Below, piece by piece: positions 1,788 to 18,962 of a DNA stretch of 64,000 nt (position 1 is the first letter of the stretch; every line of letters begins with the position of its first letter). The position numbers and the translations under genes were made by a program. The DNA comes from an uncultured bacterium. Its GTDB lineage: Bacteria > Omnitrophota > Gorgyraeia > Zapsychrales > Aceulaceae. The notes beneath the pieces were generated by a model. That model saw only the letters and a list, made by a program, of their open reading frames with translations. It was not told the origin of the DNA and ran no database searches. The stretch covers positions 75,764 through 139,763 of the forward strand of contig CALGLP010000013.1 of assembly GCA_937930175.1 (NCBI GenBank), read 5' to 3'.

Positions 1788-2651
1788 ATGAGGGGAATTA
1801 TTCTAGCTGGTGGCAAGGCAACACGTCTTTATCCCATTACGAAGGCCGTTTGTAAGCAGCTCTTGCCGATTTATGATAAGCCGATGATCTATTACCCTTT
1901 GTCTGTTTTGATGCTTGCAGGCATTCGGGATATCCAGATCATTTCGACACCTAAAGACTTGCCTCGGTTCCAGGATTTATTAAAAGAGGGAAAAGATTTT
2001 GGGATCCGTTTAAGCTATGCGTCACAAGAGGAGCCTAATGGCATTGCAGAGGCGTTTCTGATCGCAGAAGATTTTATTGGGAGAGATAGGGTTTGCTTGA
2101 TCTTAGGCGACAATGTCTTTTTTGGCCAAGGTCTTTCAGGGATTCTGCAAAAAGCCGCAAATCAGAAGAAGGGTGCGACAATTTTTGGTTATTATGTCAA
2201 CAATCCTCAGAGTTATGGTGTCCTTGCTTTAGATAAGCATAATAAAATCCTTTCGATTGAAGAAAAACCTAAGAAACCAAAATCTCATTATGCTGTGACG
2301 GGGCTTTATTTTTATGACAATGATGTTGTTAATATTGCGAAGAAGATTAAACCGTCGAAGCGTGGCGAGAAGGAAATTACGGATGTCAACTTGGCCTATT
2401 TCAAAAAAGGTGATTTACATGTTGAGCTTTTAGGACGCGGACATGCGTGGCTTGATACCGGGACTTATGAATCTTTGATTGAAGCATCTGTTTTTATCAA
2501 AACCATTGAGCAGCGTCAAGGGCTCAAAATTGGGTGCTTGGAAGAAGTGGCGTATCACAAGGGCTTTATTTCCAAAGAAAAATTGGTTTGTTTGGCTCAA
2601 GAGTTTCACACCAGTTATGGCGAATATTTATTAAAGGTTGCAAGCGAATAG
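1788..2651 (+). CDS. rfbA: glucose-1-phosphate thymidylyltransferase
   Basis: [18 protein letters not shown]... nucleotidyltransferase signature and RmlA-like length. The start was moved to the internal ATG at 1788. Confidence 0.9.
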
Positions 2652-2662
2652 GAGTAAGGTTT

Positions 2663-3223
2663 ATGCCATTTGATTTTCAATCTTTTGATATCCCTGGATT
2701 GTTGTTGGTTACCCCTAGGGTTTATAGCGATGATCGGGGATTCTTTAAGGAGATTTATAAATTCTCAGAATTTTTTGCCGCTGGGATCCAAAAACCTTTT
2801 GTTCAGGCCAATCATTCGTTGTCCAAGAAAAATACCCTGCGTGGCCTGCATTATCAAAAGAAACCTTTTGCTCAAGCCAAGCTCGTGCGAGTTTTGCGAG
2901 GTGAGATTTTTGATGTTGCGGTGGATATCCGCAGGGGATCTCCATTTTATGGAAAATACGTGAGCGTCTCTTTGAGTGCTGATCGTGCCAAGATGTTTTT
3001 TATTCCTGAAGGGTTTGCGCATGGGTTTCTGACCTTGTCCGAGGAAGCTGAGGTGGAATATCTTTGTTCTGAGGTGTATTCACCTCAACATGAACAAGGC
3101 ATTATGTTTAATGATCCCACTTTGAATATTTCCTGGCCTTTAAAAACTCCAATTCTTTCTAAGAAAGATAGCCTTTATCCTGCGTTCAAGCATGCGGATA
3201 ATCATTTTATCTTTGCGAAATGA
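2663..3223 (+). CDS. rfbC: dTDP-4-dehydrorhamnose 3,5-epimerase
   Basis: Cupin-fold RmlC motifs (RGLHYQ, FIPEGFAHGF). ATG at 2663 is preceded by GGAG. Confidence 0.9.
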   Translation: MPFDFQSFDIPGLLLVTPRVYSDDRGFFKEIYKFSEFFAAGIQKPFVQANHSLSKKNTLRGLHYQKKPFAQAKLVRVLRGEIFDVAVDIRRGSPFYGKYVSVSLSADRAKMFFIPEGFAHGFLTLSEEAEVEYLCSEVYSPQHEQGIMFNDPTLNISWPLKTPILSKKDSLYPAFKHADNHFIFAK

Positions 3224-3939
3224 GAAAAAAGATGATCACAAAAGCAGAGTTTGAAAGTAGCGCTACGGGTCAAGAAATTTATCGAGTTGAAGGCGTAAGA
3301 GATTTTAAGGCCTTGGAAGAAGAATTGGCGGCGTGCCCATATCATGTGATCGTAAAGGTCGACTCTGCAGAGACTGATGCGATTCGTTTCTTAGCTTCCC
3401 AAGGGTTTTGTTACAACTCAACGATTTTGCATTTAAAGCGCGATCTTCAAGATGTTATTTGTGCGGAAAATAAAAAGATTCAAAAGCTTTCCTTAGCCCA
3501 CCAAGACCAATTGTTTAAGATTTGTGATGAGGCATTTTGTCATAATCAAAATCGATACACCGACGATCCTTTATTAAGAAATTTTTGCGCGCAGATTCAT
3601 CGCGCGTGGATCTTAAATAGCCTCAACGGATTTGCAGATTATAACATTGGTTATTTTGAGCAGGAAAGCCTTGCAGGTTTTGGGACGCTGCACTTTAAAG
3701 AAGAGTGCGCGATCATTGGCTTGATCGCAACAGAGCAAAGTTATCGCGGAAAAGGGATTGGCACGCACGTGGTTCAGGGTCTTATTGCTTATGCGATTCA
3801 GAATCAGAAAAAAATACTGATTGTGAAGACCCAGGCAACAAATGTTTTTGCGCTTAACCTTTATGGTCGTAATGGTTTTTTTCTTTTTGGTTCTGAGGTG
3901 ACTTTGTACCGTGAAAGGCGAAATGTTTTAGCGCCATGA
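3220..3939 (+). CDS. GNAT-family acetyltransferase (WecD-like two-domain architecture)
   Basis: C-terminal acetyl-CoA motif RGKGIGTHVV. N-terminal extra domain as in dTDP-aminosugar N-acetyltransferases. ATGA overlap with rfbC. Confidence 0.6.
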   Translation: MRKKMITKAEFESSATGQEIYRVEGVRDFKALEEELAACPYHVIVKVDSAETDAIRFLASQGFCYNSTILHLKRDLQDVICAENKKIQKLSLAHQDQLFKICDEAFCHNQNRYTDDPLLRNFCAQIHRAWILNSLNGFADYNIGYFEQESLAGFGTLHFKEECAIIGLIATEQSYRGKGIGTHVVQGLIAYAIQNQKKILIVKTQATNVFALNLYGRNGFFLFGSEVTLYRERRNVLAP

Positions 3940-4787
3940 AGAATCGATTTCTTGTGTTAGGATCCACGGGGCAACTTGGTAGGGCTTTTCAGAAAGCGTT
4001 AACCAGGGAAGATGAAAAACATTTTTTCCTATCCCACCAAGATTTAGATATCACCGATATCGATAAGCTTACTCGCTGTATCAAAGAGATCAAGCCAACC
4101 GTTGTGATTAATTGCACGGCTTACAATGATGTTGATCTGGCGGAGAAGAAAAGTGAGGACGCTTTTCGTATCAATGCGACGGCGGTTCAAAATCTTGCGG
4201 ATGTCGCCCATAAAAGTAATATTTTTTTGATTCATTACAGCACAGACTATGTCTTTGATGGCGCGAAGCATACTCTTTACACCGAACAAGATACGCCAAG
4301 CCCTCTGAATTGCTATGGCCAAAGCAAGCTCGCCGGAGAGAGGGCGCTTGAAGGAATTTTAAAGGATTATCTTCTTTTTCGTGTTAGTTGGGTTTTCGGA
4401 AAAGGCGAGCGTAATTTCCTCGCCAAGGCCACCAAGTGGGCGAGCGCGCAAAAGGAAATACGTATTGCCCAAGATGAAGTCTCCATCCCCACTTTTACCG
4501 ACGATATTGTGAATGCTACGCTTTTGGCTTGTACAAAAGGCATGAGCGGGCTTTATCATCTGACCAATACGGAGCATTGTTCGCGTTATGATTGGGTAAG
4601 ATTCTACTTTGAAAAAAAAGGCTTTAATAATAGAATAATACCTGTTTCGTCGGATGATTTTCACCTCGCAGCCAAACGGCCAAAATTTTCAGCCATGGCC
4701 AACAGCCAGTTGTGTTTGGCTTTGAAAAGCAGTATTCCGTCTTGGCAAGAGGCGGTCATGCGTTTTGTTCAAATGGAGGAAAAATAA
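3936..4787 (+). CDS. rfbD: dTDP-4-dehydrorhamnose reductase
   Basis: N-terminal Rossmann LVLGSTGQLG and RmlD-like length. 4-nt overlap with the upstream gene. Confidence 0.85.
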   Translation: MKNRFLVLGSTGQLGRAFQKALTREDEKHFFLSHQDLDITDIDKLTRCIKEIKPTVVINCTAYNDVDLAEKKSEDAFRINATAVQNLADVAHKSNIFLIHYSTDYVFDGAKHTLYTEQDTPSPLNCYGQSKLAGERALEGILKDYLLFRVSWVFGKGERNFLAKATKWASAQKEIRIAQDEVSIPTFTDDIVNATLLACTKGMSGLYHLTNTEHCSRYDWVRFYFEKKGFNNRIIPVSSDDFHLAAKRPKFSAMANSQLCLALKSSIPSWQEAVMRFVQMEEK

Positions 4788-4791
4788 TTTT

Positions 4792-6021
4792 ATGAAAGTC
4801 CCTTTCGGAACCATTAATATTAATCAGCGGGCTAAGGATTTGGTGAATGAGGTTTTAGATTCTGGGCGTGTCTCAAATGGTAAATTTGTTGGTGAATTTG
4901 AAGAGCGTTTTGCGAAGCTTGTGAATGCCAAGGAGGCGATTGCCGTGAGCAGCGGTACGGATGCTGATATCATTGCGCTAGCGGTGCTGTATGATTTCGG
5001 GGCCCAGCGTGGTGATGAGGTTATTGTCCCGGCACTTTCGTTTGTGGCTACAGGCAATGCTGTCTTGCATGCAGGATTTGCGCCGGTCTTTGTTGATATT
5101 GAGCGGGAGACGTTAAATATTGATCCCTCAAAGATTGAAGCGGCCATTACCTCAAGGACGCGCGCAATCATGCCTGTTCATCTGATGGGTAAGCCTGCGA
5201 AGATGGATGCTATTATGAAGATTGCCAAAAAACATCATCTTCTTGTTGTTGAAGATGCCGCAGAAGCCCATGGCGCTGTTTATCAAGGGAAAAAAGTTGG
5301 AGAGTGGGGAGATCTTGCAGCCTACAGCGTTTATTTAGCGCATATCATTACAGCTGTTGAAGGTGGAGTTGTGACGACCAATAATGAAAAGATGGCGGAA
5401 ATTGTGCGGTCACTGCGCTGTCATGGCAGGGCCTGCAAATGTAAGGTTTGTGTGGTCAATACGTCTAATAGCTATTGTGAGAAACGTTTTGCCAAGGGAA
5501 AAGATATTCGTTTTATTTTTGAGCGCGTTGGCTATTCGTCGAAAATGAATGAGCTTGAAGCCGCGGTTGGTTTGGCGAGTCTTGATCTTTATCCGGAAAC
5601 GATTGCGAAGCGACATCATAATCTCATCACCATGATCGAACGTTTAAAAGAGTTTGAGTCCTTTTTGACAACGATCAAAGAAGAGCCAGGAGAAATCATT
5701 GGCCCTCATGCTTTTCCTATGATTGTGAAAGAAGGTGCACCGTTTACACGCGATGAGCTTGTTGATTATTTAGACAAGCATGACATTGACACCCGTGATC
5801 TTTTTTCCTCGATGCCAACGCAGTGCCCAGGCTTTGCTTTCCTTGGATTAAGACAGGGTGATTTTCCCCATGCAGAGTTTATTGGCAACAACGGTCTTCA
5901 CATTGGTGTGCATCAGGATATTCATCAGGAACATATTGATTATGTCATGAAAACGATCAAGGATTTTATTGCTCTAAAGACGGTGGGTGTTAAAGCGATA
6001 GCGAGGAAAAAGAAGGTGTAG
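4792..6021 (+). CDS. DegT/DnrJ/EryC1-family PLP/PMP enzyme, predicted sugar 3-dehydratase (E1/ColD/SpnQ-like, His in place of the catalytic Lys, Cys-rich insert)
   Basis: Gapless alignment of SVYLAHIITAVEGGVVTTN...RSLRCHG onto the DegT block SFHAIKNITCAEGGIVVT...RSLKFHG puts His where the Schiff-base Lys sits. C-x-C lies 31 and 33 residues after that His, in RCHGRACKCKVCVVNTSNSYC. Confidence 0.8.
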   Translation: MKVPFGTININQRAKDLVNEVLDSGRVSNGKFVGEFEERFAKLVNAKEAIAVSSGTDADIIALAVLYDFGAQRGDEVIVPALSFVATGNAVLHAGFAPVFVDIERETLNIDPSKIEAAITSRTRAIMPVHLMGKPAKMDAIMKIAKKHHLLVVEDAAEAHGAVYQGKKVGEWGDLAAYSVYLAHIITAVEGGVVTTNNEKMAEIVRSLRCHGRACKCKVCVVNTSNSYCEKRFAKGKDIRFIFERVGYSSKMNELEAAVGLASLDLYPETIAKRHHNLITMIERLKEFESFLTTIKEEPGEIIGPHAFPMIVKEGAPFTRDELVDYLDKHDIDTRDLFSSMPTQCPGFAFLGLRQGDFPHAEFIGNNGLHIGVHQDIHQEHIDYVMKTIKDFIALKTVGVKAIARKKKV

Positions 6022-6047
6022 TTTTTTGTATTCTATTTGGAGGTTTT

Positions 6048-6746
6048 ATGAGTATGAAGCTTTCTGTTCTTATTCCCTGCTATAATGAAAAAAATACGAT
6101 CGCGGCACTTATTGACGTTGTCCGCAACTCTCCGTATGGGAATAAAGAAATCATTGTGATTGATGATTGTTCTAGCGATGGAACGCGTGAGCTGCTTAAG
6201 GGTGGCTTAGGGGTTAAGGTCGACAAGGTGATTTATCAGGATCGAAACTTAGGCAAAGGAGCAGCCCTTAGGGCGGGTATCAAGGAAGCATCCGGAGATA
6301 TTGTGATCGTTCAGGATGCCGATTTGGAGTATGACCCTGGTGAATATCTTAAGGTTATTTCACCGATTTTGCAGAATAAGGCCGATGTGGTTTTTGGTTC
6401 TCGCTTTATTAGCGGTGAGCCTCATCGCGTTGTCTATTTTTGGCACATGGTCGGTAACAGCTTTCTGACGTTATTATCGAATATTTTTACTAATCTTAAT
6501 CTGACGGACATTGAAACCTGTTACAAGGCCTTTCGACGGGAAATCATCCAATCTATCAAGATTGAGGAGGATCGTTTTGGTTTTGAGCCAGAGATTACGG
6601 CAAAAATCGCTAAGAAAAAATGTCGTATTTATGAGGTTGGGATTTCTTATTACGGCCGAACTTATGAAGAAGGCAAGAAGATTGGCTGGAAAGATGGCGT
6701 GCGGGCCATTTATTGTATTTTTAAGTACAATCTTTTTCGGCACTAG
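6048..6746 (+). CDS. family 2 glycosyltransferase (polyprenyl-phosphate sugar transferase-like)
   Basis: LSVLIPCYNE...VIDDCSSDGT...DADL GT2 motifs. The start may instead be the ATG at 6054. Confidence 0.8.
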   Translation: MSMKLSVLIPCYNEKNTIAALIDVVRNSPYGNKEIIVIDDCSSDGTRELLKGGLGVKVDKVIYQDRNLGKGAALRAGIKEASGDIVIVQDADLEYDPGEYLKVISPILQNKADVVFGSRFISGEPHRVVYFWHMVGNSFLTLLSNIFTNLNLTDIETCYKAFRREIIQSIKIEEDRFGFEPEITAKIAKKKCRIYEVGISYYGRTYEEGKKIGWKDGVRAIYCIFKYNLFRH

Positions 6747-6773
6747 GCGACGTGTGCGCACAAGGAGCTTTGG

Positions 6774-7520
6774 ATGATTGAAAATAAAAAAGTTGTTGTT
6801 GTTCTGCCAGCATATAACGCGGAAAAAACGCTGCAACGCACCTATGACGAGATTCCTAAAGGTATCGTCGATGAAGTGATTTTGGTGGATGATCATTCGG
6901 GGGATAAAACCGCTGAGCTTGCTCGACAACTTGGCATTGAGGTGATTGTTCATCCTGAAAATAGAGGTTATGGTGGCAACCAAAAGACATGCTACCAGGA
7001 AGCCCTGAAAAGAGGAGCAGATATTGTTGTGATGTTGCATCCAGATTATCAATATCCTCCAAAACTTGTGGCTCCTATGGCTTCGTTGATTGCCTCGGGG
7101 ATGTTTGATGTGGTTTTGGGGTCGCGTATTTTAGGTGGATACGCGATTAAAGGGGGAATGCCTTTTTATAAATATGTTGCCAATAGGCTGCTGACAGCTT
7201 TTGAGAATATTTTGACAGGGCAGAAGCTTTCAGAGTACCACACAGGGTTTCGCGCTTATTCAAAAGCTGTGCTTGAGCGTATTTGTTTTGAACGCAATTC
7301 CGATGATTTTGTTTTTGATAATGAAATGCTGACACAGATCTTTTATTTTCAATACCGCATTGGAGAAATTAGCTCGCCGTGTTCCTATAACCAAGACTGT
7401 TCTTCGATTAGTTTTCGTCGGAGTGTTATTTATGGGCTGGCTGTTGTGAAGACGACGCTACGCTTTTTCTTGGCAAAACACAAAATGGTGCGTGACCCTC
7501 TGTTTGATCCCAAGATATGA
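6774..7520 (+). CDS. family 2 glycosyltransferase (dolichyl-phosphate mannose synthase-like)
   Basis: VVLPAYNAE...LVDDHSGDKT...GNQKT motifs. AGGAG RBS. Confidence 0.8.
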   Translation: MIENKKVVVVLPAYNAEKTLQRTYDEIPKGIVDEVILVDDHSGDKTAELARQLGIEVIVHPENRGYGGNQKTCYQEALKRGADIVVMLHPDYQYPPKLVAPMASLIASGMFDVVLGSRILGGYAIKGGMPFYKYVANRLLTAFENILTGQKLSEYHTGFRAYSKAVLERICFERNSDDFVFDNEMLTQIFYFQYRIGEISSPCSYNQDCSSISFRRSVIYGLAVVKTTLRFFLAKHKMVRDPLFDPKI

Positions 7521-8050
7521 GCTTTCTTAAATTGGTTCGACAGCGACAAAGTTGCCGTAGCTATGCTAAGACGCCCGTGTCGCAGGAAGCACTTGCGCGC
7601 TGCCTCGAGGCAGCGCGCCTTTCACCTTCGGCGTGCAATTCCCAGGCCTGGCGTTTTATTATTGTCAGCGATCCGGTGTTGCGCGTGCGTCTGGCCGAAA
7701 AGGCTTTTGGCGGTGTTTATGCCATGAACGCTTTTGCCAGGGAAGCCCCAGTGTTGGTTGTTGTGGTTACCGAGCGTTCCAAGTATGTTGCGCAAGTTGC
7801 CGGCGCGACACGCGGTACGCAATACAATTTGATTGATATTGGCATCGTGTGTGAGCATTTTATTCTCCAGGCGACGGAAGAGGGTCTGGGCACTTGCTGG
7901 ATCGGCTGGTTTGACCAGAAAGGTGTCCGTGAGGTTCTTGGATTATCTAAAAAAGACTCACTTGATATCATGATCAGTGTCGGTTTTCCTTTAGATACCC
8001 CGCGAGAAAAAGTGCGTAAGGATATTAAAGATGTGGGCGAGACAAGATAG
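7517..8050 (+). CDS. nitroreductase-family flavoprotein
   Basis: RQSCRSY...SPSACNSQAWRF nitroreductase motif. ATATGA overlap with the upstream GT2. Confidence 0.75.
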   Translation: MSFLKLVRQRQSCRSYAKTPVSQEALARCLEAARLSPSACNSQAWRFIIVSDPVLRVRLAEKAFGGVYAMNAFAREAPVLVVVVTERSKYVAQVAGATRGTQYNLIDIGIVCEHFILQATEEGLGTCWIGWFDQKGVREVLGLSKKDSLDIMISVGFPLDTPREKVRKDIKDVGETR

Positions 8051-8116: not shown

Positions 8117-8144
8117 CACGCGTCATTGACAAACCATCAGAAAT
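8117..8144 (+). promoter_or_regulatory. sigma70 promoter for pgk (consensus -35 and -10)
   Basis: TTGACA at 8117-8122, 16-nt spacer, TATAAT at 8139-8144, about 85 nt upstream of the pgk ATG. Confidence 0.55.
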
Positions 8145-8227
8145 ATATATAATATTCCTAATTTTACTAAAGCATTTTCTTCACGTGAAATCATTCAGAG
8201 GCCCCTATTAACCCAAGGAAGGTTTTT

Positions 8228-9455: not shown

Positions 9456-9818
9456 ATGGAAGGGAAGATTAAGAGTTTCAAAGATCTTAGAATTTGGCAA
9501 AAGGGTATTGAAGTCGTAGCGGATTCATATCAATTAACAAAGAATTTTCCTAAAGAAGAGCTTTACGGGTTAACGTCTCAGATTCGCAGATCGAGCGTGT
9601 CCATTCCTTCAAATATTGCTGAAGGGTTTAAAAGATACCACAACAAGGAATACAAGCAGTTTTTATTTATTGCTCTTGGTTCCTTGGCAGAACTGGAGAC
9701 GCAGTTGATTATCGCCGAGAAACTGAATTTTGTTAACCTGCAAGACCTTCAGAATGTTTCTAGCAAAATAGAATACTTGTCAAAGATGATTTCTTCGCTA
9801 ATGAAAAAATTGTCTTAA
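9456..9818 (+). CDS. four-helix-bundle protein (23S rRNA intervening-sequence protein family)
   Basis: KDLRIWQKGIEVVADSYQLTKNFPKEELYGLTSQIRRSSVSIPSNIAEGFKRYHNKEY...LGSLAELETQL matches the TIGR02436/PF05635-type signature by recall. Confidence 0.8.
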   Translation: MEGKIKSFKDLRIWQKGIEVVADSYQLTKNFPKEELYGLTSQIRRSSVSIPSNIAEGFKRYHNKEYKQFLFIALGSLAELETQLIIAEKLNFVNLQDLQNVSSKIEYLSKMISSLMKKLS

Positions 9819-16614: not shown

Positions 16615-16643
16615 TTTAAACTTTGGCTTTAAAAGGATTTTTT

Positions 16644-18962
16644 ATGGCAGAATTTTGGTGGAAAAAAGGTTGTTACGTAAGCGGGATGATGGCCGTGGGC
16701 GTTTTGCTGGGGCTGGTCATCTTCCTGTGCAATTTTGAGATTGCGGATTTTGATTTGTGGTTGCATCTTAAAACAGGTGAGGTCATTGTTGAGCAAGGTG
16801 TGATTCCTTTGCAAGATATTTTTTCTTGTTCGGTTGCAGGAAAGCCTTGGAATAATCACGAGTGGCTGTTTCAAGCTATCTTTTATTTGTTCCTTTCGCT
16901 GGGTGGTTATGAAAATCTTTTTACAGCCCAGGCCATGCTTGTTGCGTTGACTTTCATGACGCTTATTTTCTTAAGCGATCTGAAGCGACGACACTATATG
17001 ACAGTTTTTTTGCTCTTTTTGCTCACGTTGGTTTTTAAAACACGTTTAACCATGCGGCCGGATCTTTTTAGTTTTTTCTTTCTCGCGTTCTTTCTTTATA
17101 TCTTGGCAATTCATCTTGAGAAAAAGATGAGCGTCTGGCTTCTTTTTATCGCGCAGATCTTGTGGGTCAATATTCATGGGTTTTTTATTTTTGGCCCTTT
17201 GCTCATTCTCTTGAGCATTGTTTCGGAGCTTATCAAGCGGCACTGGCGATTGCCCTGGGACTGGAACACGGTTGGCCGTTTGACGGATCAAGAGCTTAAG
17301 AGGCTTAGCTTTGCGTTTGTGGCCACAGCCTTGGCATGCTTGGTGAACCCTCAGTTTGTGAAGGGGGCTTTGTATCCGTTTACGATTCTTTTCCAAATGG
17401 CAGGAGAGTCCTCGATTTTCTTTAACCATATCCAGGAGCTTCAGAAACCGATTGCTTGGGGTACGATCTTAACGCAGCGTTATATTTATTATAAGCTTCT
17501 CATTCTCATTTCAGCGTATAGCTTTTTTGTGAATCGCAAGCGCATTGACATTTCTGCGTTGTTGCTATGGGTGTTCTTCCTTGCGTTTTCTCTTCAAGCG
17601 ATTCGCAATATTATTTATTTTGGGATCGTGGCGTACTTAGTTACAATTCTTAATTTCTCTGAATACCGCCTCGAAGATATTTTGCCGGTCAAGTTTAAAC
17701 GAAATATTCTAAAGTTGATCACGATTTTTTTGCTTAATATTGCGATGATTGCTTGGATGGTGCGCTTTGGCTATCAGGAGTCTAAGGGCGTGTATTTTGA
17801 TTTTGACAAATATGAAATGAAAAGCACCTTTAGCGGCATTAGCCAGCGTAATTATCCATGGGCCGCCACAGACTTTATCAGGAACAATAAGATCCAGGGA
17901 AACTTTTTTAATGATTTTAATTCTGGGGCTTTCTTGATTGGTCGATGTTCTCCCAACCTTCGTGTGTTTATGGATGGTCGCACTGAGCTTTATGGTCCGC
18001 GGTTTTTTAAAGAATATGTGCGTATTTTGGAGGGTGATCAGGCGGCTTTTTTAAAGGCAGTTGATCAATTTCAACTAACCGGTGTTTTTTTGGGATCAGC
18101 CCATAATCGTCTTTCTGAAAAAACCCTCCAGTGGTTGTATCAGGATAAGGATTGGATTCTTGTTTATTTAGATTATGATGCGGTGATTTTCTTAAAAGAT
18201 GTTGCGCAGAATAAGGCTTGGATCGAGGCGTTTCGCAAGGATAAGAAGGGAATTGTCTTTAGCGATTTTGACTTTGAACGCCTTGGGCCGCGTGGAGTTT
18301 TTCCTTTTCGGGAGATCAAGCGCGCTTACAATCTCGAAGCCCTAGGTCTCAACGAGCTTGCCCTTGAGCAAATCACTCAAGCTCTTTTGATTTCTCCTGG
18401 TTCGTCGGAGCCGTATTACATTCGTGGAAGGATTTTGGAAAAGACTGGAAAAACCCAAGAGGCCTTTAAGAATTTTCGCTTGGCTGTTATGATTTCTCCT
18501 GATGATGCTGATCATCGTTATCATTTGGGACTTATGTATTTTGATTTAGGAGATTATAAAAAGGCTCTCAGAGAGTATGATCGCGCCTTGAGCAATGAGG
18601 CGAAACGATCGGATATTCTTTTGAGCTCTGCGTTAGCCTATCTTGCGGATGAGCAATATGATAAAGCCATGAAAGCTGCGCGTAAGAGTTTTTCTTTTGG
18701 GTCTAAGAATGTCTTAAAAGGCCTTAAGTTCGTTGATGGTTTAATTAGCAAGAAAAGATATGCTGAAGCTTTTGACATCCTTGGGGTCATGGTCAAGGCG
18801 CAGCCAAGCCATGGGGCTGTGTATCATAAAATTGGGCTTTGTTTCTTGGATCTTGGGGAAAAGGCCAAGGCTCAAGAAGCTTTCTTAAGGGGATTAAGGG
18901 TAGAGCCTGCGTCGCAAGAACTTAAAGAAGCGCTGCAAGAAGTCAAGGGCTTAAAAAAGTAA
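16644..18962 (+). CDS. polytopic membrane protein with C-terminal TPR repeats (glycosyltransferase-C-like membrane domain is a guess)
   Basis: About 12 predicted TM helices in the first 400 aa, then TPR-like repeats (YYIRGRILEKTGKTQEAFKNFRLAV..., YHLGLMYFDLGDYKKALREY...). The ATG at 16644 is preferred over the TTG at 16623. Confidence 0.55.
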   Translation: MAEFWWKKGCYVSGMMAVGVLLGLVIFLCNFEIADFDLWLHLKTGEVIVEQGVIPLQDIFSCSVAGKPWNNHEWLFQAIFYLFLSLGGYENLFTAQAMLVALTFMTLIFLSDLKRRHYMTVFLLFLLTLVFKTRLTMRPDLFSFFFLAFFLYILAIHLEKKMSVWLLFIAQILWVNIHGFFIFGPLLILLSIVSELIKRHWRLPWDWNTVGRLTDQELKRLSFAFVATALACLVNPQFVKGALYPFTILFQMAGESSIFFNHIQELQKPIAWGTILTQRYIYYKLLILISAYSFFVNRKRIDISALLLWVFFLAFSLQAIRNIIYFGIVAYLVTILNFSEYRLEDILPVKFKRNILKLITIFLLNIAMIAWMVRFGYQESKGVYFDFDKYEMKSTFSGISQRNYPWAATDFIRNNKIQGNFFNDFNSGAFLIGRCSPNLRVFMDGRTELYGPRFFKEYVRILEGDQAAFLKAVDQFQLTGVFLGSAHNRLSEKTLQWLYQDKDWILVYLDYDAVIFLKDVAQNKAWIEAFRKDKKGIVFSDFDFERLGPRGVFPFREIKRAYNLEALGLNELALEQITQALLISPGSSEPYYIRGRILEKTGKTQEAFKNFRLAVMISPDDADHRYHLGLMYFDLGDYKKALREYDRALSNEAKRSDILLSSALAYLADEQYDKAMKAARKSFSFGSKNVLKGLKFVDGLISKKRYAEAFDILGVMVKAQPSHGAVYHKIGLCFLDLGEKAKAQEAFLRGLRVEPASQELKEALQEVKGLKK

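Follow-up and report, generated by a model that had tools for sequence, protein, structure and literature searches.

A window of 64,000 nucleotides of contig CALGLP010000013.1, from an uncultured Omnitrophota bacterium, contains near its beginning a gene that follows directly after genes of deoxythymidine diphosphate (dTDP)-sugar synthesis and encodes a protein of the DegT family. Members of this family that act as sugar aminotransferases hold their vitamin B6 cofactor on a lysine, through a Schiff base. In the protein studied here this lysine is replaced by histidine, and a cysteine-rich loop follows. The main features are listed below, with pyridoxamine 5'-phosphate abbreviated PMP, iron-sulfur Fe-S, and nucleoside, cytidine and guanosine diphosphate NDP, CDP and GDP, respectively.

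4792 to 6021, forward strand: the target gene, 409 amino acids from ATG 4792; a His-type DegT-fold protein, predicted to be a PMP- and Fe-S-dependent NDP-4-keto-hexose 3-dehydratase.
5341 to 5343, forward strand: the codon of His184, at the Schiff-base lysine position, equivalent to His220 of the Yersinia dehydrase E1 and to Lys186 of perosamine synthase.
5434 to 5478, forward strand: the Cys loop C215-K-C217-K-V-C220-x8-C229, a predicted four-ligand metal or Fe-S site.

The target is a member of the DegT/DnrJ/EryC1/StrS group of fold-type I B6 enzymes (PF01041). In a Pfam search the match covers residues 11-389 with 341.5 bits, compared with a gathering score of 19.8, and the template modelling (TM) scores of a structure model to DegT structures, which exceed 0.8, agree. 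Public records list the protein as a generic DegT aminotransferase, and the Joint Genome Institute (JGI) label for its relatives is dTDP-4-amino-4,6-dideoxygalactose transaminase. A mechanical open reading frame call begins at TTG 4765 for the target and at TTG 1707 for rmlA (span 1707-2651); homolog alignments favour internal ATGs, 4792 for the target and 1788 for rmlA. The start at ATG 4792 is backed by the N-termini of homologs (consensus MKIPFGTI) and by a GGAGG 13 nt upstream. Numbering from this ATG makes the residue at the Schiff-base position His184; the original prediction, which a model made from the letters of the stretch, called it His193, a count that runs from TTG 4765 and has to be corrected. 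The strings quoted in that prediction exist; SVYLAHIITAVEGGVVTT...RSLRCHGRACKCKVCVVNTSNSYCE translates from 5326-5481. Its comparison block, SFHAIKNITCAEGG, is absent from the window and is an aminotransferase reference sequence. We considered SFHAIKNITCAEGG as a paralog encoded in the window and ruled this out, as a search of the window found no occurrence.

The column of the Schiff-base lysine can be fixed by pairs of wild-type and mutant structures. In HMMER alignments His184 falls on Lys186 of GDP-perosamine synthase (K in 3bn1, A in the K186A mutant 3dr4) and on H220 of Yersinia E1 (H in wild-type 3bcx, K in the H220K mutant 3bb8), and the translation contains no other lysine within about 15 residues. 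The Lys-to-His swap claimed in the original prediction is therefore real, and a lysine at this position, which was to overturn it, is not seen in these HMMER alignments. The target lacks the Schiff-base lysine (S-x-x-x-x-K) that marks DegT-type sugar aminotransferases (ArnB, WecE, Per). It has the His-for-Lys substitution of PMP-dependent NDP-hexose 3-dehydratases (E1, ColD, SpnQ), with G55, D155 and S179 intact. In the DegT family these three are B6-cofactor-binding positions. Together with Y181, H184, C215 and C229, they are invariant in 119 sequences, that is, 57 family members and 62 proteins publicly named RfbH. Given these invariant residues and the histidine in the lysine column, the target looks like an active B6 enzyme that would be unable to form an internal aldimine.

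The Cys loop resembles that of E1. On the 3bcx alignment the ligands C251, C253 and C261 of Yersinia E1 correspond to Cys215, Cys217 and Cys229, and the C-x-C pair of the target lies at +31 and +33 from His184, gapless relative to E1 (H220, C251, C253), just as the original prediction had stated. The E1 numbering that it gave (H220, C251, C253) likewise agrees with the 3bcx sequence, where residues counted along the alignment are C192/C193, H220, C251, C253, C257 and C261. We take the E1 motif and ligand set to be C193-X57-C251-X-C253-X7-C261; this is consistent with conservation in the 62 RfbH-like proteins, and a full-text literature search for the motif string gave no match. The proposal that the target has this [2Fe-2S] motif holds for the equivalents of C251, C253 and C261. 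It fails at C193, which is Ala157, and in the spacing of the last Cys: a 4-residue insertion places 11 residues between Cys217 and Cys229 (x8 after Cys220), compared with 7 in E1. The positions compared across the 57 family members and the 62 RfbH-like proteins are as follows.

Position 157 (E1 C193): Ala in 57/57 of the family; Cys in 60/62 RfbH-like proteins.
Position 181 (E1 Y217): Tyr in all of the family and in all RfbH-like proteins.
Position 184 (E1 H220): His in all of the family and in all RfbH-like proteins.
Position 185 (E1 H221): Ile in the family; His or Gln in RfbH-like proteins.
Position 211 (E1 W247): His in the family; Trp in RfbH-like proteins.
Position 215 (E1 C251): Cys in all of the family and in all RfbH-like proteins.
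Position 217 (E1 C253): Cys in 57/57 of the family; Cys in 56/62 RfbH-like proteins (113/119 overall).
Position 220 (aligned with E1 G256): Cys in 57/57 of the family; Gly in 42/62 and Cys in 13/62 RfbH-like proteins.
Position 229 (E1 C261): Cys in all of the family and in all RfbH-like proteins.
Position 306 (E1 F345): His in 57/57 of the family; Phe in 62/62 RfbH-like proteins.

As read from this alignment, the family motif is C-x-C-x2-C-x8-C, a variant of the E1 motif in which the fourth Cys appears to be swapped for Cys220 within the loop. Given that the C193 position is Ala, yet Cys220 is invariant, four-coordination would be retained by a different residue. A set of 120 homologs (69-100% identity) shows no variation at His184, Cys215, Cys217, Cys220 or Cys229, and these five are among just 43 invariant columns of a 14-sequence alignment reaching 39% identity; Cys210 is variable in the family. 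Among 79 other genomes, 78 have an ortholog that keeps all five, so the loss of the loop Cys from orthologs that would have undone the original prediction is not seen. On these alignments, the conservation of His184 and the loop Cys is far beyond chance. Among the 150 best relatives, taken as 50%-identity representatives from an exhaustive search, the C-x-C loop is exclusive to His-type sequences (0 of 12 Lys-type).

Most of these 150 relatives are His-type, and their loops fall into several classes. Three of these have no Cys, one being ColD-like and the other two large; the remainder are the class of the target, a shorter CxCxxC-x5/6-C class and an E1-like class that retains Cys at the position of C193. 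In a rough neighbour-joining tree the target family stands apart from both the E1-like clade and the Lys-type clade, and the ColD-like representatives form a separate clade. Of the solved structures, E1 (3bcx) alone can be aligned across the Cys loop. An AlphaFold2 model built with RfbH-like sequences added has a predicted local distance difference test score (pLDDT) of 92.6 and a predicted TM score of 0.90, with 85, 65 and 81 for the blocks of the Cys loop; in an earlier model, built from 58 family sequences alone, precisely the His and Cys loops had pLDDT values under 50. The highest query-normalised TM score of the model is 0.87, to E1 (about 403 columns), compared with 0.83-0.84 to aminotransferases. 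A literature search found nothing on the target's family or on its conserved neighbour set. Judged by these comparisons, the target belongs to a large, sequence-distinct and unstudied sister group of E1.

Other His-type relatives have features of their own. One large clade without loop cysteines (P0134, P0150, P0159, P0171, P0182, P0186 and others) has the signature STYVAHLLVTGVGG ... NHGRDSIYLSIDDDD, and its members are often fused to GT1/GT4 or short-chain dehydrogenase/reductase (SDR) domains; we know of no characterised member. A second large clade, also His-type, has a short loop (SHGRxP). Two His-type homologs carry inteins within the DegT domain, namely P0139 (689 aa) and P0302, an RmlD-E1 fusion of 1203 aa. 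On a Phycisphaerae contig, a partial classical E1-like gene with the motif SDPSWFGFPITV (L057:3-1034) lies about 9 kb upstream of a family ortholog (L057:10001-11191); if so, the family type and the classical E1 type may coexist at one locus.

The target belongs to an operon that spans 1788-8050, in which several gene pairs overlap by 4 nt and the GC content is uniform. Its other genes are listed here.

1788 to 2651, forward strand: rmlA, glucose-1-phosphate thymidylyltransferase (TIGR01207, 462 bits compared with a cut-off of 360.65; PF00483), the first gene of the operon, divergent from metF.
2663 to 3223, forward strand: rmlC, dTDP-4-dehydrorhamnose 3,5-epimerase (TIGR01221, 230.3 bits compared with a cut-off of 155.75).
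3220 to 3939, forward strand: GNAT N-acetyltransferase (PF00583), weakly WecD-like (PRK10975, 66.7 bits compared with a cut-off of 219; E = 2.6e-18).
3936 to 4787, forward strand: rmlD, dTDP-4-dehydrorhamnose reductase (TIGR01214, 274.6 bits compared with a cut-off of 224.05), which stops 4 nt before the target.
6048 to 6746, forward strand: GT2 glycosyltransferase (PF00535) of the polyprenyl-phosphate-sugar synthase type (AglJ/DPM1/ArnC-like; TIGR04182, 127 bits, below the cut-off).
6774 to 7520, forward strand: a second GT2 of the same general type (PF00535), with weak matches to PpgS and to dolichyl-P-hexose transferase.
7517 to 8050, forward strand: nitroreductase-family flavoprotein (PF00881, 124 bits), the last gene of the operon and a possible, unconserved electron donor.

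The presence of rmlA, rmlC and rmlD, described in the original prediction, is borne out by scores above the NCBIfam equivalog cut-offs for all three. The GNAT gene overlaps both rmlC and rmlD by 4 nt. It has just 8 detectable homologs, nameless or generic, and it is missing from the operon of the 87%-identical relative L088 and from nearly all of the other ortholog loci (79 compared). Thus, it is an accessory gene outside the conserved core. A sigma-70 consensus with 12 of 12 matches (TTGACA, 16 nt spacer, TATAAT) lies at 8126-8153, about 75 nt upstream of pgk, and indicates a new transcription unit and the end of the sugar operon. Between pgk and tpiA, at 9456-9818, there is a gene for a four-helix-bundle protein of the 23S-rRNA-intervening-sequence type (PF05635), a layout also found in related contigs. 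Further downstream, 16623-18962 encodes a 779-aa protein that has several membrane passes in its N-terminal part and TPR repeats at its C-terminal end, and that matches no glycosyltransferase Pfam family. This protein could be a candidate for a periplasmic-side transferase acting on the polyprenyl-phosphate sugar that the GT2 enzymes would make.

Relatives of the target occur in at least 265 species-level genomes of the genome collection, mostly from uncultivated phyla rich in anaerobes, and the orthologs range from 62 to 87% identity. The best 80 (62-84% identical) belong to Omnitrophota, Planctomycetota (including Brocadia), Elusimicrobiota, Nitrospirota, Desulfobacterota, groups of the candidate phyla radiation (CPR) and others. 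Neighbourhoods were compared in 79 other loci. The rml block (rmlA-rmlC-(GNAT)-rmlD-gene-GT2) is confined to the closest Omnitrophota relatives. L088 has metF followed by rmlA-rmlC-rmlD-gene-GT2, and there the target ortholog and the GT2 gene overlap by 14 nt. The block with GNAT is found in L086 and L013 (83-84%) and in L004 (82%), and L005 and L006 (76-78%) have rmlD-gene-GT2 on truncated contigs; the adjacency of rmlD and the target is thus kept in L004, L005, L006, L013, L086 and L088. In L013:11300-12800, L086:11300-12800, L004:4235-5679 and L006, a two-gene insertion that is absent from the window separates the DegT-His gene from the GT2 gene. It encodes a 212-214 aa protein and a 268-288 aa AbiEii-family nucleotidyltransferase, and is probably an AbiE toxin-antitoxin pair.

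In the wider set of 79 loci the neighbours are different, and the most frequent are these.

HddA-like GHMP kinase: 55/79 loci.
ManC/HddC-like nucleotidyltransferase: about 52-55/79 loci.
B12-binding radical SAM protein: 49/79 loci.
GDP-fucose-synthase (Fcl)-like SDR: 38/79 loci, directly downstream in 20.
Split transketolase: about 28/79 loci.
Pair resembling the alpha and beta subunits of pyruvate dehydrogenase E1 (PDH-E1): about 20/79 loci.

Many of these genes recur together as a same-strand cluster in loci L007-L083 (for instance L015:1-11200, L016, L023, L033 and L050) from Omnitrophota, Elusimicrobiota, Planctomycetota, Nitrospirota and Desulfobacterota. The cluster has an SDR, the split transketolase or the PDH-E1 alpha/beta-like pair, the B12-binding radical SAM protein, the HddA-like GHMP kinase, the ManC/HddC-like nucleotidyltransferase, the DegT-His gene and the Fcl-like SDR. 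Its gene content suggests a route to a 3-deoxy sugar that is branched and/or C-methylated, and we found no literature on it. Apparent rmlA genes beside the Nitrospirota and Desulfobacterota orthologs were rejected as such; they are ManC/HddC-like and 25-29% identical to RmlA.

Gene fusions are a further source of context. Two DegT-His-GT2 fusions (P0121 and P0125) are 46-49% identical to the target and have the same Cys motif, and their GT2 domain is 26-29% identical to the GT2 at 6048-6746. E1 itself is fused to RmlD in about 30 proteins, and one 4,6-dehydratase-E1 fusion was also found. One RmlD-E1 locus, with an SDR, an RmlC-like cupin, a GT2 and a nucleotidyltransferase, has an ascarylose-like layout; the neighbourhood of the RmlD-E1 fusion P0155 is uninformative.

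We lean towards the view that the target is a PMP-dependent, Fe-S nucleotide-sugar 3-dehydratase of the E1/SpnQ mechanistic type. This is based on the His substitution, the homologous and conserved Cys loop, the constant pairing with an epimerase or reductase, and the coupling to GT2. A partner of the epimerase/4-reductase type occurs in every context (RmlC and RmlD here, an Fcl/ColC-like SDR elsewhere), and the GT2 coupling is seen in the adjacent gene of the window, in the 14-nt overlap in L088 and in the fusions that carry the same Cys motif. Taken separately, 3-dehydratase chemistry is likely, and a site that holds Fe-S rather than another metal is nearly as likely.

By homology to E1, PMP would condense with an NDP-4-keto-(6-deoxy)hexose at its 4-keto group to give a Schiff base, and His184 would take the C4' proton as the 3-hydroxyl is expelled. 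The cluster on the loop Cys215-x-Cys217-x2-Cys220-x8-Cys229 may then hand two single electrons to the enamine intermediate, which would yield a 4-keto-3-deoxy sugar and regenerate PMP. Both E1 and SpnQ carry a [2Fe-2S] cluster, according to a review that also summarises how E1, ColD and SpnQ work (PMC8987622). Because no dedicated E3-type reductase is encoded nearby, we suspect that the electrons come from general ferredoxin or flavodoxin systems. In SpnQ, whose substrate is a TDP-sugar, general ferredoxin or flavodoxin reductases take the place of E3 (PMC8987622). SpnQ is thus a precedent for the absence of E3 as well as for a dTDP substrate, and a dTDP-linked Fe-S 3-dehydratase would not in itself be new.

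The gene order suggests a pathway. RmlA, together with an RmlB encoded elsewhere, could supply dTDP-4-keto-6-deoxyglucose as the substrate; RmlC would epimerise the 3-deoxy product at C5 and RmlD would reduce C4. The simplest end product would be a dTDP-3,6-dideoxy-L-hexose of the ascarylose (3-deoxy-rhamnose) type, which the adjacent GT2 may put onto polyprenyl phosphate. That the source organism uses such a dTDP route is a tentative proposal, for which we put the chances at a little under even. We know of no description of a dTDP-3,6-dideoxy-L-hexose. A bolder version, in which we have limited confidence, is that the family represents a separate, unrecognised B6 lineage that carries out one-electron redox chemistry. 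All of its Fe-S ligands would lie in one loop (C193 being lost), and a nearly unchanged enzyme would serve GDP-type pathways with an Fcl-like partner and dTDP-type pathways with RmlC and RmlD across many uncultivated phyla. In this Omnitrophota lineage the product would be a dTDP-3,6-dideoxy-L-hexose, exported via the polyprenyl-phosphate GT2.

A number of observations weigh against an E1/SpnQ-type enzyme on a dTDP route, and each is considered here beside the alternative on which it bears. To begin with, the best NCBIfam match of the target, RfbH (NF011936), reaches 293.6 bits, under its cut-off of 423; on this score the target is not an equivalog of E1/RfbH. The E1 ligand C193 has no counterpart in the target, and as far as sequence alone can tell, the four cysteines could hold either an Fe-S cluster or a structural Zn. 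No E3/FNR-type (AscD) reductase is found among the operon proteins or in the window. A homolog of the nitroreductase adjoins the ortholog in 0 of the 79 other loci, and this flavoprotein, homolog-less in those neighbourhoods, was rejected as a conserved substitute for E3.

These points bear on the possibility of a redox-independent 3-dehydratase of the ColD type, in which the four-Cys loop would bind a structural metal such as zinc, PMP would be regenerated from glutamate and no electron donor would be needed. Four close cysteines within one loop are also typical of zinc sites. The lack of any conserved reductase partner (0/79 neighbourhoods), the frequent Fcl-like neighbour, which mirrors ColD/ColC, and the absent C193 would all be consistent with such an enzyme. 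However, three of the four Cys are positionally homologous to the experimentally established [2Fe-2S] ligands of E1 and are conserved in both families, ColD-type sequences are without any such loop, and SpnQ needs no dedicated reductase gene (PMC8987622). We consider this ColD-like alternative improbable.

Two further points against the 3-dehydratase concern transamination. His306 stands where RfbH-like proteins have Phe, and F345H is reportedly among the mutations by which E1 was converted to an aminotransferase. Moreover, the GNAT is without a role in the proposed scheme. The target could thus be mainly a 4-aminotransferase, or a dehydratase that ends in transamination, as in the side reaction of SpnQ; it would then produce a dTDP-4-amino-(3,)4,6-deoxy sugar to be N-acetylated by the operon GNAT. 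SpnQ transaminates without reductant, when the reductase is absent (PMC8987622). The current database label would fit, as would the JGI name for the relatives and the E. coli gene order rffH-wecD-wecE, with the GNAT and its weak full-length WecD match (E = 2.6e-18) between rmlC and rmlD. The N-terminal half of the target is also closest to perosamine synthase, and His306 is aminotransferase-like by the alignment and by the reported E1 conversion mutants. Set against this, the Schiff-base lysine is absent, and a conserved Cys loop would be purposeless in a plain transaminase. In addition, the GNAT is missing from the otherwise identical operon of L088 and from nearly all other loci, its family has 8 detectable members, and its WecD score of 66.7 is far from the cut-off of 219. 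An aminotransferase, in either form, seems very improbable.

The remaining points concern the nucleotide. Neither rmlB nor another 4,6-dehydratase is present in the operon or in the 64-kb window, and the rml blocks of related genomes likewise have neither. L013 (83% identical) encodes a glucose-1-P cytidylyltransferase RfbF (414.6 bits compared with 300.25) a few genes downstream and a 4,6-dehydratase-like SDR in the same cluster. From 75% identity downward the context changes, and instead of rmlA, orthologs that are 62-75% identical have a GHMP kinase and a ManC/HddC-like nucleotidyltransferase as neighbours. Just two surface-like variable positions (A234 and Q379) separate the rml-context orthologs from the rest. 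Given that the two context groups are nearly indistinguishable in their residues, the neighbours may not report the nucleotide.

In this light, the same Fe-S/PMP 3-dehydratase chemistry could act on a CDP- or GDP-linked 4-keto substrate made elsewhere in the genome, with rmlA, rmlC and rmlD making ordinary dTDP-L-rhamnose for the same glycan. Such an arrangement agrees with the neighbours of most orthologs (the nucleotidyltransferase, the GHMP kinase and the Fcl-like SDR in the numbers listed above), with the 25-29% identity to RmlA of the "RmlA-like" neighbours in non-rml loci, with the CDP-glucose genes in L013 and with the mere two positions that distinguish rml-context orthologs. It also agrees with the CDP specificity of characterised E1 (PMC8987622). 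On the other hand, at least 6 genomes keep the order rmlA-rmlC-rmlD-gene-GT2, with the genes closely packed and in part overlapping, and the window is without CDP or GDP pathway genes. In particular, neither the operon proteins nor the window include a CDP-glucose synthase, and a GHMP kinase, an Fcl-like SDR and another nucleotidyltransferase of a relevant type are likewise missing from the 64 kb. The operon lacks rfbG or gmd as much as rmlB, so that neither route is complete locally. We regard a CDP- or GDP-linked substrate as unlikely, although it deserves more weight than the two alternatives above.

The observation at the core of the original prediction is confirmed, and its interpretation is supported in part. 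Its dTDP-3,6-dideoxy-L-hexose route fits the tight linkage to rmlC and rmlD, a context found in the closest relatives alone; the dTDP linkage is weakened because rmlB is absent, nearly identical enzymes occur in non-rml contexts and L013 has CDP-glucose genes. Its description of E1-type Fe-S dehydratases as enzymes of CDP pathways holds for E1, which is CDP-specific, and has to be widened to include SpnQ, a dTDP-linked enzyme that is already known (PMC8987622).

From the perspective of B6 enzymology, a small class would gain a large sister family whose cluster-binding motif is rearranged. To our knowledge, E1 and SpnQ are the only characterised enzymes that use vitamin B6 in single-electron chemistry. 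The family would also offer a natural experiment on the positioning of the cluster relative to PMP. Given that it is uniformly annotated as aminotransferase in at least 265 species-level genomes, glycan predictions are probably wrong at this step in Omnitrophota, Elusimicrobiota, anammox Planctomycetota, Nitrospirota and others. If the dTDP route is true, 3,6-dideoxyhexoses would be carried by a third nucleotide as well as by CDP and GDP.

Compared with known systems, the target's best overall score (E = 2.6e-62, about 34% identity, TM 0.83-0.84) is to Lys-type aminotransferases, that is, GDP-perosamine synthase and the ArnB and WecE type. They share with it the EDAAEA motif and His at position 306. 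However, they have the Schiff-base lysine and no Cys loop, and their HMMER alignment to the target is split, skipping residues 213-238.

ColD (GDP-4-keto-6-deoxymannose 3-dehydratase) is, like the target, a His-type DegT enzyme. It works with ColC (GDP-L-colitose synthase), an epimerase/4-reductase that finishes the 3,6-dideoxy-L-hexose; the Fcl/ColC-like SDR directly downstream in 20 ortholog loci, and RmlC with RmlD here, would be the counterparts. ColD differs in having no Cys loop (H-G-W-x-R-D/E in the representatives) and no Fe-S cluster, with PMP regenerated from glutamate, whereas the target has the four-Cys loop.

SpnQ (UrdQ-type; the TDP-4-keto-2,6-dideoxyglucose 3-dehydratase of spinosyn forosamine synthesis) is likened to the target by description alone, as a PMP/[2Fe-2S] enzyme that acts on a TDP-sugar with no dedicated reductase (PMC8987622). 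It differs in its 2,6-dideoxy substrate, in its setting in actinomycete secondary metabolism and in its 2,3-dehydratase and 3-ketoreductase partners, domains that are not found among the operon proteins.

The closest likeness in structure is to E1/AscC/DdhC/RfbH (CDP-6-deoxy-L-threo-D-glycero-4-hexulose 3-dehydrase of Yersinia and Salmonella, PDB 3BCX). The target differs from it by Ala in place of C193, the extra invariant Cys220 and the 4-residue insertion before the last Cys, and by H211, I185 and H306, which in RfbH-like proteins are W, H/Q and F, respectively. The target also lies in a separate clade of the rough tree and below the RfbH cut-off, with E3 reductase and CDP-glucose genes not found in its window. 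The two nevertheless share the DegT fold, about 30% identity along their whole length, the His that replaces the lysine (H220/H184), Tyr three residues before it (Y217 in E1, Y181 in the target), and C251/C253/C261 as C215/C217/C229, followed by a K-R-F motif. They also have RmlC-like and RmlD-like partners in common, as in the asc pathway and in the RmlD-E1 fusions.

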